Below are positions 3,226 through 46,230 of a DNA stretch of 64,000 nucleotides, piece after piece. Origin of the DNA: Octopus sinensis (Eukaryota); the NCBI RefSeq assembly GCF_006345805.1, contig NC_043009.1, positions 64,976,001-65,040,000 of the forward strand. Reading direction: 5' to 3'. The notes beneath the pieces were generated by a model. That model saw only the letters and a program-made list of their open reading frames with translations. It did not search any database and had not been told where the DNA came from. The position numbers and the translations under genes were made by a program. The number at the start of each line of letters is the position of its first letter. Positions within the stretch are counted from its first letter, which is position 1.

Positions 3226-3515
3226 AGGTATTTTATCCGGTCCCCCTCCAACTCTTAGTCCATGTAATTGAAAAAACTGCATTATTTATGGGATGACCCA
3301 ATAGCATATATATACATATACATACATACATACATATATATATATATATATATATATATATTATATATATATATGTATGTATGTATATTATATATATGTA
3401 TGTATAAATGCATATATATGTGCGAGTGTGTACGTATATACGTATTATATCTATGTATGAATATAAATGTCTATGTTGGCATATATGTATATATGTTGCC
3501 TATTTCATATTTCAG

Positions 3516-3889
3516 CTTCGTCCAAGAACTTAGATATTGAAGACGTCTTTGAGGAATGCGGTGGATATGGCTACTTCCAGCTGTTCTTGACTCTCGTGAT
3601 TGTATTTTTTGTTATAGTTAATGCCATGTTATATATGTCCATGGTTTACATTGGAGTACAAATTCCTTTCACTTGCTTTCCACCTGAACTCAACAGTTCT
3701 TTGATCCCTGAAAATATCACCTCCGAAGAATTCCTGGAGGTGTTAAATTACAAAATCGACGAATGTTCTGTTATTGATTTACAACAGGATGACAGTTCCT
3801 ATGACTTGTCATCGATAAATTCCACGAAGCCACGGAACTGTGAGAGACGACGTTTCGATACGAGAGACATGTCAAGCATTGTTTCAGAG
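3516..3889 (+). CDS. SLC22 copy A exon 1 (TM1 + large extracellular loop)
   Basis: ttcag acceptor ending 3515; ..SIVSE|gtaaga donor; ORF 3467..3937. Confidence 0.9.
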
Positions 3890-6800
3890 GTAAGACCATT
3901 TTTAGAACCAGTTTTCTCGCTTTGGCAGGTTACGTAAAGTTTGATTGAAGCAAATTCACTTCACACCATTTTGTCCCAGCTTAGTTTAGACACGGTCGGG
4001 TGACGACCGGAAACATTCTAGCTATGATCATCTGACCAGACAATCTGTTTTTTTTTTTTAATATTCTCAGCCATAGTGATTATTGGATTACATTATATTG
4101 TTCCACTTTTCTTTAAACTTTTCTGTTATAAAATGGTAGTTTTTGATTTGGAGGAGATTGATCGTTATTTCTAGCAAACCAAATGACCATGTAAAGACTT
4201 TCGCAGTGATTAATGAAAACATTATGTCGAAGTATCAGAAACTTATACACCTGGCTTCTCACTGGCCTTGAGAATAGACAGGTGGGTTTCCCCTACAAGC
4301 TTTGTTGTATGATTGTGACGTTCGGGTCGGACGCACGTAATTTCGGGGTCGATTTCACTACAGGGCATAGAACCTCGGGTCAATCAAAATCTTGTAAGGG
4401 AAATTTGGTAGACAAAAACTGCATCAAAGACTGTGGGAGGATCCGTTCTTGTTCTTGAGTTTAGAATTCATGTGTCGTTCTTTTCCAACGCTAACGTGTA
4501 GTCTCTCTGTGCAATTTGTAGCAAGTATCCGGAGCAAGCCTATGGTTTGAGGATAATATCCACACTACAGCAATCCCCGCTTCCTTTCCGACCACCAAAC
4601 ACGCAATCATGAAAAGGATTATGGTCACTGCACTTCTTGCCCTGGTTAAACCATTGAATAAAGATTATCAGTAGACATGCAAACTTGCTCTCCTTTTTCT
4701 TGAAAATATAATTCTTACTATGTCGAAAACTGATCGGAAAACCTTCACATGTGTACCTATTTATTACATGTATATGTAGAAATAAGTAACAAAACCCGTG
4801 AAACGTTGTCCCTGTTTGAAGGAGAACTCTGATCCCTCAATTAGATAATCGCATATCCCACAATTGGGTGTTCCACATTTTTTTACTGACGGCTTCTGTG
4901 TTGTTGAGCGTATTCGGGCTTGTGTTAAGAGACTTTTCATAGATTTGGGCTGTCTCTTGCTTTTTATAATGGTGTGTGTTTGGAGGATTAAGTTCATTCT
5001 GTGGTCCTTTTTTTAGCAGGGGAATGTTTTGAAGGATGGTGTCGAAGGCTTCATTGTTAAGGAGGTTGTGTATGGAGATGTATGGTAGGGCTTTTGGTTG
5101 TAAATCCTTCTTTAATTTGGGATGTCTGAGTTCCTCGATATTGAGTTGAAGGGCACGTTGAATACATATGTCAATTAGTGAAGGTGGGTAGTTCCTGGTG
5201 ATGAGTGTATCTTTTAGTTCATGTAGTCGCGTGTCTCTGGCGTTTGCATTAGAAACTATAGTACATATCCTTTTGGCTAGGTTAAAGGGGATATTCATTC
5301 AGGTGTGTCTGGGGTGACATGAATTGAATGGAAGATATTGCTTGGAATCCGTAGGTTTATAGTATATATCTGTTTCTATTGCGGTATTAGATTTCTTAAT
5401 GAGGATGTCGAGGAAGGGGAGTTGTTGCTGGCTATATTCCATCGTGAATTAGATGTTTACGTCAAGTCCATTTAAAAATGCTTGGAATTCTTTAAGTTTC
5501 TCTATATTTTCATGCCAAAGAATGCAACAGTCATCTAAGTATCTCTTCCAGTTGTTTTCTATGTGGATGGAGAAAGGGCTGCCGTATCTTTCTAGAACCT
5601 TACGATAAAGACTAATTTCTAGATATCCCATATATATATATATATATATATATATATATCGATGAAGGATGCAGCTATTGGCAAAAGACACCTAGAAATT
5701 GTGTTCTTCAACAAGTTGTTCAATGCGATGTTTATTGACATCCCAAGAAAATACAGTTCTTTGTCGCTCTCGCCATTACAAAAGCAGTGAACAAATGAAG
5801 GGTCTCTCGGAAACATTGGACGAACAACGTCTTTGTTCACCAATTGCTGTATAAAATAGGTTTGTTTTTGCTTTCTGTTTACAAATTATTTATGATCAGA
5901 CTGTAAGGACGATAGTCAGAAAGATAGACAGGCAGGCAGGCAAGTAGGTAGGTAGGTAGGTAGGTAGGTAGGTAGGTAGGTAGGTAGGTAGGTAGGTAGA
6001 TAGATAGGTAGGTGCGTTCGTACGTACATAGGCAGATAGATAAGTAAGCAGAGATAGATGGGAAGATAGGTAAGTAGACAGAAAGACAGACGGCGACAGA
6101 CAGACAGACAGATAGTTAGATAAATAGATAGATAGATAGATAGATATATTGATTGATTGATTGTTTGATTGATTGATTAATTGATTGATTGATTGATTGA
6201 CTGTACTACTAAGCGTCATACAAAACTCCCACTTAGAAATGGTTCAAATATTATATATTTGTGGACTTTTACACATCACATGAAAATCATTTCTGCGTGT
6301 TGCACGAGATTTTGACAAAGCAATAAAAAGTTTGTCCGGTTATACAATGCTCAACAGAAATCAGATTTAAGAATCGCATTTTTGTGTCTAATTTCAGCAA
6401 AATGAACATCGAATACATATTGATAGATCGATGTCAATAATTATTCATATTTATTTAATGTCTGTTTTTTGGAAACTATTATACAGTTTGATTTAGTCTG
6501 TGAAAGACGCTGGTTGAAAAACACTGCCTTTTCTGCGCTATTTATTGGCTGCCTTGTAGGTTCCCTAGGATTTGGCATTCTTGCCGACAGGTAAATATTT
6601 ACTCATTTATTTATTTATTTTATAATGGACGGGTGTGTTGTTGTGTGATTAAGATTTTAATTCTGTAAACTCATGGGATTCCTTCCAGATAGAATCTAAA
6701 TGAGCGAAACTTTGGACACAACACTTCCGGTTGACCAATACCTTCTGAAAAGAATTTAATGGACTGAAACTCTGCGATTGCCCGTCGTGTGGGTGCCTGT

Positions 6801-45268: not shown

Positions 45269-45565
45269 CTGAAATATGAAATAGGCAACATATATACATA
45301 TATGCTTACATAGACATTTACATTCATACATAGATACAATATATATGCATATACACATATATATGCACTTATACAAATATATATATAATATACATACATA
45401 CATATACATACATAAACACACAAACACACACACACACACACACACATACACACACACACAAAGACATATATATATATATATATATATATATAATATATAT
45501 ATATATATATATATATATAATATATATATATATATATATATGTGTGTGTGTGTGTATATATATAC

Positions 45566-46230
45566 TATTGTTTTATCCCATTAATAATGCAGTTTTTTCA
45601 ATTGCATGAACTAAAAGTCGGAGGGAGACAGGATAAACTACCTGCATCAACTTGCTATAAAAGCAGGTAGTAATTTTACTTGTGCTTATTCTTGGTGCAA
45701 TTTTGAAGAGTGCAGTTCGGTCTTAGCGGTAATTTTTTGAAAGCTATCATGGAAGTGACAAAGGAGCATATTTGGCATATTTTGCTTTATGTATTCAATA
45801 AAGGCAACACCGGAACGGTAAATGCGAGGAATATTAATGCAGTATATGGGGATCGGACGATAAGCGTAAGCCAGTGTCAACGGTGGTTCCAGAAATTCCA
45901 GCTGAAAACTACAGCTTAGTGGACTAGCCTCGTCCTGGAAAACCTGTGGAGCTCGATGAAGACGTCCTGCAAACTCTGGTAGAACAAAAACCCACCGGCA
46001 CCCCAAGCTAAAGAAGGTCTTCACCCACGTAAGGTGTTGTTATCTGTTTGGTGGGATGTGGGAGGTTTAGACCACTTTGAACATTTAAACCCAAACCAAA
46101 CGATAACAAAGGAGATCCACTGCAAGCAGCTTGAGCGGTTTAAGTCTGCGCTAGAAGAAAAGAGACCATCTTTGGTTTCAAGACGAAAGGTGTTCTTCCA
46201 TCAGGATAATGCTCAGTCACAAATAGTTCC
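45566..46230 (+). mobile_element. Truncated mariner; its 5' end is also present, inverted and diverged, at 3226-3304
   Basis: MEVTKEHIWHILLYVFNKG...CQRWFQKF; LSVWWD...FFHQDNA. Confidence 0.85.

Follow-up and report, generated by a model that had tools for sequence, protein, structure and literature searches.

A tail-to-tail pair of SLC22 genes in Octopus sinensis, one copy of which is predicted to have a diverged substrate pocket

INTRODUCTION

What becomes of two neighbouring copies of a transporter gene when their proteins are 90% identical and part of the remaining difference falls on the residues that contact the cargo? This question is raised by a palindromic locus of Octopus sinensis that carries two SLC22 genes, here called copy A and copy B. 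The window analysed is a single stretch of 64,000 nucleotides (NCBI RefSeq assembly GCF_006345805.1, contig NC_043009.1, positions 64,976,001 to 65,040,000, forward strand), and positions below are counted from its first letter unless a contig is given. Duplicate divergence under gene conversion is a known process and SLC22 is a known family. An initial annotation, made from the letters of the window alone, proposed that one of the two paralogs had been neofunctionalised under positive selection. Several questions follow. Do the copies differ in the substrate pocket? Which of them has changed? Were the changes selected, tolerated, or merely left standing where gene conversion failed? On balance we favour the reading, with modest confidence, that copy B shifted its substrate range through four predicted replacements at cargo contacts and that copy A kept the ancestral pocket.

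THE SUBSTRATE POCKET

Copies A and B are both intact SLC22 genes with nine coding exons and a protein of 562 amino acids each, and the full proteins differ at 57 of 562 residues (90% identical). Pocket sites were placed by alignments to OCT1, URAT1 and OCTN2 and by papers, not by distances in a model. The ergothioneine contacts given for OCTN1 are Q207, I208, Y211, C236, F239, F441 and R469 (PMC13669368), which map to positions 221, 222, 225, 249, 252, 478 and 506 of the octopus proteins. In the fifth transmembrane helix (TM5) this mapping is ambiguous by one residue and the unchanged H249 was taken, and the changed sites align without gaps to OCT1, OCTN2 and URAT1. At the seven positions copy A has Q, S, Y, H, F, F and R and copy B has M, S, F, H, F, W and S. 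The copies thus differ at four of seven contacts (221, 225, 478 and 506), an excess with P = 0.003 against the whole protein, 0.007 against helices only and 0.012-0.014 when sites are weighted by family variability. Over 13 OCTN1 pocket residues copy A matches 10, the highest of 23 aligned rows, and copy B 6. Copy A has the equivalents of OCTN1 N32, Q207, Y211, F239, W349, Y356, E381, F441, Y445 and R469; copy B keeps E418, W386, Y393, F252 and Y482.

Position 506, in TM11, corresponds to R469 of OCTN1 and D474 of OCT1, and is arginine in A and serine in B. Its equivalent is aspartate in OCTs and arginine in most OATs and OCTNs (PMC13669368, PMC10567722), and R469A removes more than 85% of OCTN1 uptake (PMC13669368). 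In 29 last exons of other paralogs (of 38 other matches in the genome) the position is arginine in 27, lysine in one and cysteine in one. Copy A therefore combines a TM8 glutamate with a TM11 arginine (E418, R506), and copy B keeps E418 and has S506. The paralog with cysteine at the TM11 arginine position (L033, L043-L044; G000:C13:26961347-26978600, minus strand) has eight exons by tblastn and no stop inside its exonic parts, and apparently lost the arginine independently.

Which copy has changed? When the 57 differences were polarised by outgroups, 33 were derived in B, 11 were derived in A and 13 stayed open (binomial P = 0.0013); for the C-terminal sites the outgroup was Argonauta, which at about 55% identity gives a weaker basis. 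In a tree of 23 rows, in which the A+B clade has support 97/89, the end branches are 0.084 for B and 0.028 for A. Judged from these alignments, copy A looks ancestral-like and copy B derived. The proposal that one paralog diverged in the substrate pocket is thus supported, with B as the derived copy and with the contact positions named.

COMPARISON WITH KNOWN SLC22 TRANSPORTERS

Both copies belong to SLC22, within the major facilitator superfamily (MFS), and organic-ion transport is predicted for them. Pfam Sugar_tr and MFS_1 score above cut-off, and the motifs S-IV-EFDLVC, DRFGR, PESPRW and E-FPT--R are present in both copies, aligned with OCT1 and OCT3. An AlphaFold model of B has 12 membrane helices (predicted local distance difference test 77, predicted template modelling score 0.76), and the top 49 rows of a Foldseek search with it were all SLC22 structures, the best being OCTN2 (9pdq; TM-score 0.80, E 2e-27). 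A large extracellular domain lies between TM1 and TM2 (residues 67-149), C74, C104 and C150 being invariant in 22 rows, and an intracellular helical domain follows TM6 (helices 294-350).

Placement within the family is less simple. The best sequence matches are OCT1-3 (E 1e-66), then OCTN2, OAT1 and URAT1, and the family profile gives OCT2, OCTN2 and OCT3 nearly equal scores. The OCT pair of TM11 aspartate (D474) and TM4 lysine (K214) is absent, A having R506/S222 and B S506/S222, and of the OCTN Na+ site S28/N32/Q180/N210 only N32 is kept in either copy (Q180 is T/V, N210 is S, and S28 aligns with F). Because that pair and three of the four Na+-site residues are missing, neither copy is assigned to the OCTs or the OCTNs, and because only one of the four Na+-site residues is kept, Na+ coupling is doubtful.

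OCTN1 and OCTN2 (SLC22A4/SLC22A5) are nevertheless close in two respects, OCTN2 being the top fold match and copy A sharing ten OCTN1 pocket residues, whose roles are described in PMC13669368. They differ in that identity is about 27%, B has no equivalents of Q207, Y211, F441 and R469, and orthology to them would be tentative, the tree holding no vertebrate rows. With OCT1-3 (SLC22A1-3) both copies share the equivalents of F244, W354, Y361 and E386, and B, like the OCTs, is without the TM11 arginine; however, B has serine rather than the aspartate D474, and S222 instead of the K214 partner. As for OAT1 and URAT1 (SLC22A6/A12), R506 of copy A aligns gap-free to URAT1 R477, and B carries the same R-to-S change as a human allele. 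In URAT1, R477S is a rare loss-of-function allele (PMC11811179), also reported in a patient (PMC6086067), whereas R506S occurs in two octopus species together with other pocket changes, and both octopus copies keep the TM8 glutamate typical of OCT and OCTN. A parallel of another kind is the Drosophila CG18281/CG17637 MFS pair, which bears the Teshima-Innan signature: young transporter duplicates with mostly nonsynonymous peaks kept across species amid converted sequence (PMC2588116). That pair was tested with orthologous DNA of both copies in two species (PMC2588116), whereas the octopus comparison uses partial proteins of a second species; on the other hand, the octopus divergence peaks map onto structurally known selectivity residues.

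GENE STRUCTURE AND DISTRIBUTION OF THE DIFFERENCES

The initial annotation had described two intact eight-exon genes between 3226 and 45645. Intactness was upheld, as the eight exons on the plus strand and the eight on the minus strand all have GT-AG introns, equal lengths between copies and open frames, but the exon count was not: what had been taken as the first exon begins at a splice acceptor and has no start codon, and a 61-nucleotide ATG exon precedes it in each copy, outside that range. The protein of copy B is identical to P0002 (XP_029643942.2, source label Octopus sinensis). The coding exons, numbered from the start exon, are as follows.

G000:C13:64972474-64972534, outside the window: copy A start exon, ATG, 61 nt, in the mirrored region of about 10.6 kb upstream
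3516..3889, plus strand: copy A exon 2 (earlier counted as exon 1), TM1 and extracellular domain
6487..6590, plus strand: copy A exon 3 (earlier 2), TM2, no amino-acid difference from B
7231..7385, plus strand: copy A exon 4 (earlier 3), TM3-TM4, Q221 at 7352-7354 and Y225 at 7364-7366
8144..8312, plus strand: copy A exon 5, TM5-TM6
11242..11535, plus strand: copy A exon 6, intracellular helices and start of TM7
14991..15205, plus strand: copy A exon 7, TM7-TM9, spliced joint in runs X1 and X2
15677..15785, plus strand: copy A exon 8, TM10, F478 at 15736-15738
17269..17476, plus strand: copy A last exon, TM11-TM12 and stop, R506 at 17303-17305
51122..51182, minus strand: copy B start exon, ATG, 61 nt, absent from the initial annotation
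44895..45268, minus strand: copy B exon 2
42361..42464, minus strand: copy B exon 3
41553..41707, minus strand: copy B exon 4, TM3-TM4, M221 and F225
38489..38657, minus strand: copy B exon 5
34003..34296, minus strand: copy B exon 6
29634..29848, minus strand: copy B exon 7
27420..27528, minus strand: copy B exon 8, W478
24482..24689, minus strand: copy B last exon, S506 (24655-24653) replacing the conserved arginine

Both arms also conserve a short segment that lies at 51825-51921 on the minus strand and has its mirror copy upstream of the window; it forms the first exon of the O. vulgaris model P0003 and is possibly a 5′ untranslated region or an alternative exon.

Amino-acid differences in the eight in-window exons number 7/0/12/8/9/6/3/8, or 53; the earlier count of 13/7 in place of 12/8 is a matter of where one junction codon is put. 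As had been noted, exon 3 has no amino-acid change (it has one synonymous change) and most of the extracellular loop is identical, 2 of 85 residues of that domain differing. By helix the counts are 5/0/6/7/4/3/4/3/1/3/7/0 for TM1-12, and nine codons carry two or three nucleotide changes between A and B; 85 coding sites are diagnostic for one copy or the other. Are the differences gathered in the helices that line the cavity? Helices are enriched over loops (43/303 vs 14/259 differing residues, P = 0.0007), but the claimed enrichment of cavity helices over outer ones is not significant, either as 33/233 vs 10/88 (P = 0.58) or with the seven cavity helices originally listed, TM2 not counted (33/203 vs 10/118, P = 0.06), and TM3, an outer helix, ranks among the most changed.

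THE PALINDROME AND GENE CONVERSION

In a self-comparison of the window with tandem repeats masked, a series of collinear minus-strand blocks extends from the outer pair 3225<->45644 as far as 18432<->19522, the innermost being 18173-18432 <-> 19778-19522. The genes therefore lie in a tail-to-tail inverted duplication, as first described, with an extent larger than 3226..45645, since mirrored blocks extend about 10.6 kb beyond the upstream edge of the window on one side and as far as window position 54,254 on the other.

3225..18432, plus strand: arm A of the inverted duplication, in-window part, its mirrored blocks going on about 10.6 kb upstream of the window
18433..19521, no strand: unique spacer of about 1.1 kb at the palindrome centre, inside the innermost block pair 18173-18432 <-> 19778-19522
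19522..54254, minus strand: arm B of the inverted duplication, from mirrored blocks

The arm match stops at 3225 because a retroelement was inserted in copy A, not because the duplication ends there. Broken retroelement pieces, which we take to be Penelope-like, lie on the minus strand in introns of copy A (about 900-3226 and 4803-5900), with a GIY-YIG match at 1091-1723 and a 105-bp inverted repeat at 2556-2660/3122-3226. Mariner-type transposase remnants were seen at 15860-16835 and 26370-27345, at 25627-26109 and at 45983-46366; the first two are common to both arms with 97.6% identity, and that element is therefore either older than the duplication or a product of conversion. Direct repeats that are 99% identical or nearly so, differing mostly by homopolymer gaps, at 22354-24139, 47846-49179 and 30399-31096 are either recent tandem duplications or local assembly artefacts. 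An intron of copy B holds a self-inverted 300-bp element resembling a miniature inverted-repeat transposable element (42956-43252), and at 54553-55471 there is a complex minisatellite whose nested repeat periods range over about 26-207 bp.

Could the two arms be alleles, or the product of an assembly mis-join? Palindromes can be mis-assembled. The arms nevertheless differ at 4% of aligned non-coding sites and carry many private insertions, and O. vulgaris has both an A-type and a B-type model under consecutive accessions (CAI9732261.1, CAI9732262.1). We regard this explanation as very improbable.

The introns had been described as near-identical. This holds for intron 2 (8/590 aligned sites differ) and for intron 1, which includes 3890-4800 (37/1165), but not overall: 7,112 columns are alignable between the arms, out of 15.2 kb in A and 26.1 kb in B, the unaligned sequence consisting of simple repeats and private insertions, and 226/5484 aligned non-coding sites differ (4.1%; the lowest value per intron is 1.4%, in intron 2, and the highest 8.1%, in intron 4). 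These differences are overdispersed (P = 3e-14, 54 windows of 100 columns). The divergence peak is the TM3-TM4 exon (22/155 nt), which lies above the non-coding mean (P = 9e-7) but resembles those non-coding windows that diverge most. Donation of this exon to B by a third close paralog was considered and, short conversion tracts apart, rejected, as the next matches are 36-38% identical (26 candidates scored). Synonymous differences sit nearer to amino-acid differences than expected by chance (mean 4.4 vs 7.6 codons, P = 0.005), and synonymous divergence (dS) is 0.012 in the extracellular domain vs 0.09-0.10 in cavity helices.

At the protein level, the signs of conversion are one clear converted site, Q111, which A and B share although both outgroups and the two O. 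vulgaris copies have L there, and one swapped site, position 44, whose state is exchanged between the copies across O. sinensis and O. vulgaris. Both extracellular-domain differences are private to one copy each within O. sinensis. At 17 of the 22 differing sites after residue 21 that both O. vulgaris models cover, the state specific to each paralog is retained, and these sites cluster in helices; the count comes from partial proteins. Gene conversion, rather than a very recent origin, is the likely cause of the near-identical stretches, and with conversion probable, the contrast of introns with exons overstates selection.

RELATIVES, TRANSCRIPTS AND A SECOND INVERTED PAIR

At least 33 sequences in the genome match the TM1 exon. 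All are on contig C13, where they form two arrays, one of 17 at 64.07-65.02 Mb and one of 16 at 26.9-27.35 Mb; with A and B set aside, the highest identity among them is no more than 46%. Weak matches, three in number, were seen on C9, and the last exons L027/L028 and L030/L031 look very recently duplicated. No published account of the octopus SLC22 arrays was found in a literature search at title and abstract level, with supplements and most subscription papers outside its scope. The "paired transporter module" for xenobiotic or toxin handling found nothing in its support, the pair being one young duplicate among these matches.

How old is the duplication? The partial O. vulgaris models P0001 and P0003 (CAI9732261.1 and CAI9732262.1) have A-type and B-type states, 7/7 in TM11, and O. 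bimaculoides is represented by one A-like fragment of 287 amino acids. Among the protein matches listed, copy A has no full-length representative, and O. bimaculoides has neither a C-terminal half nor a B-type protein. In the tree A and B are sisters, followed by the O. bimaculoides fragment and then Argonauta; the tree omits two broken models of O. vulgaris and six further hits that were partial or fused. As O. vulgaris has both types and the O. bimaculoides fragment falls outside A+B, the duplication is, on these protein comparisons, older than the O. vulgaris split, and it appears younger than that of O. bimaculoides; conversion can make copies look younger.

Runs X1, X2, X17 and X20 were retrieved with the sequence of copy A. 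Their contigs show presence only, and although no B-type spliced contig is among those listed, this has no bearing on B. The contig of X20, with 32 differences, may be A-type or B-type. The X1 and X2 contigs (RNA by guess) skip 15203-15675 and 15784-17268, with GT..AG ends, in A-type sequence, so A is spliced. Copy A may be unannotated or mis-annotated: it has spliced-contig support but no protein among the matches listed, and a RefSeq model exists for B.

A second young tail-to-tail inverted SLC22 pair was seen in the other array (G000:C13:27160001-27220000; L045-L050, 27.16-27.22 Mb), one copy being close to P0019. It has 47 amino-acid differences in 520 codons, mostly in TM7 and TM8, where local dS is raised, and none in TM5, TM6, TM9 or TM12. 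Its ratio of nonsynonymous to synonymous substitution rates (dN/dS) is 0.47 overall and 0.51 in helices, against 0.70 and 0.88 for A/B by the same method, and 2 of 15 covered pocket sites differ, with the TM11 arginine kept.

This second pair bears on the explanation that A and B overlap in substrate range and owe their retention mainly to a division of expression or dosage; the helix differences would then tune affinity, and their clustering would mostly mark where conversion failed. The second pair shows a similar mosaic, with TM7 and TM8 diverged at both site classes and TM5, TM9 and TM12 identical; in A/B too, synonymous differences are raised where amino-acid differences lie, and A itself has 11 derived changes. 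Yet the asymmetry toward B is strong, the charge that B lost is kept in 28/29 other paralog exons, and helix dN/dS is nominally higher, at 0.88 vs 0.51 in this control pair. We consider such a division of expression or dosage improbable as the main explanation.

SELECTION OR RELAXED CONSTRAINT

Is B a copy with a new pocket, or a redundant copy in which the constraint was relaxed? Under relaxed, not absent, constraint the activity of A would be lost or weakened in B, the pocket changes would be tolerated damage, and the reading frame would survive through weak selection and repair by gene conversion. This stands as a rival because the human counterpart of R506S, URAT1 R477S, is a loss-of-function allele; the R469A effect on OCTN1 uptake points the same way. 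Copy B also has A197P in TM3 and changes at six well-conserved sites, it evolves faster than A between species, and the helix dN/dS of the pair is indistinguishable from 1: with a shared dS the ratio is 1.08 in helices (P = 0.75 against 1) and 0.39 in loops, the two differing with P = 0.0003.

Outright decay is a different matter. There is no stop, and the only two charge gains lie at helix ends, vs 6.5 charge gains and 2.1 stops expected neutrally; a neutral simulation gave an outcome as mild in 1/300 at 43 changes, 2% at 35 and 7% at 26. Conserved sites are under-hit, with 6 changes at 134 sites vs 13.6 expected (P = 0.007). Pure neutral decay of B is rejected by this simulation, more weakly (7%) if only 26 changes are assigned to B, and neutral decay of the copy is unlikely. 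Part of this evidence speaks against relaxed constraint as well: no stop or frameshift arose where nonsense mutation alone would give 1.3-3.4 changes under neutrality, charge was not gained at any buried site, TM2 and TM12 have no changes, loop dN/dS is about 0.4, and O. vulgaris retains the B-type residues of TM10 and TM11. Relaxed constraint thus seems to us rather unlikely, though clearly the stronger of the two functional rivals.

Positive selection, which the initial annotation had invoked, was not established, and several points weigh against a selected shift in the pocket of B. By pairwise codon maximum likelihood the whole-gene dN/dS is 0.79 (P = 0.32 against 1), and the ratio is not significantly above 1 in all helices (0.92-1.08) or in cavity helices (0.83-0.89). 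TM3+4 reach 2.6 post hoc (P = 0.004), which falls to 1.8 (P = 0.33) with their own dS; TM4 alone gives P = 0.052 for a ratio above 1; and a pairwise site-class test with P = 0.002 rests on about 2% of codons, where multi-base changes may drive the outcome. Values above 1 thus come from post hoc or multi-hit-sensitive tests. The seven-site contact list was picked after the TM11 change had been seen, a wider list pooled from PMC13669368 and PMC10567722 gives 4/16 pocket sites (P = 0.07-0.15), several paralogs likewise match just 5-6/13 OCTN1 residues, and the TM11 substitution is the one found in the loss-of-function allele of URAT1. B differs from its O. vulgaris counterpart at 10/318 sites and A at just 4 outside two mis-modelled stretches; the direct evidence of conversion is the two protein sites, and the substrate shift is a prediction.

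The initial annotation had named dN/dS well below 1 with evenly spread differences as counting against its proposal; the ratio is below 1 but not different from it, and the spread is uneven, helices being enriched over loops. On the side of a shift in B, nine coding differences were counted between the X2 transcript and A, of which eight are listed, all eight synonymous, whereas A and B differ in the exons covered by X2 at 19 nonsynonymous and 8 synonymous sites (contrast P = 0.0005, or 0.005 if the unlisted site is nonsynonymous). Positive selection on the pair is suggested, not shown.

A PREDICTED CHANGE IN SELECTIVITY AND ITS MEANING

A model of the favoured reading is as follows. Copy A, with a glutamate and arginine pocket like that of OCTN1/2, would carry a zwitterion or anion of the carnitine, ergothioneine or betaine type, probably without the OCTN Na+ site. 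In copy B the glutamate and the aromatic cage persist, with the arginine lost (R506S) and the further changes Q221M, Y225F and F478W. These replacements remove a positive charge and two polar groups from the pocket and add a tryptophan, so that the cavity of B is expected to be net negative and more hydrophobic, which would suit cations or neutral compounds. Conversion between the arms would go on removing differences from the extracellular domain and from some of the introns, and the helix differences would be maintained by selection.

A bolder idea, which we hold as tentative, is that copy B is a natural charge-selectivity switch caught early, in which, over the short time since this gene was duplicated in two close octopus lineages, an OCTN-like zwitterion pocket became an arginine-free pocket for cations or neutral compounds by way of serine, not aspartate as in vertebrate OCTs. 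The octopus paralog with arginine changed to cysteine may have done likewise independently.

How SLC22 proteins choose among cations, anions and zwitterions has been studied mostly in vertebrate proteins distant in sequence. The value of the locus lies in a natural 90%-identical pair that differs at the charge-selectivity residue of the family. As the copies differ at the residue that distinguishes OCT from OAT/OCTN and at three further contacts, a handful of swaps could test the selectivity rules, and if the switch is real, the pair would be a minimal four-residue recipe for SLC22 charge selectivity. Such duplicates recur in the O. sinensis genome, whose two SLC22 arrays (about 17 and about 16 genes) hold repeated young inverted pairs.

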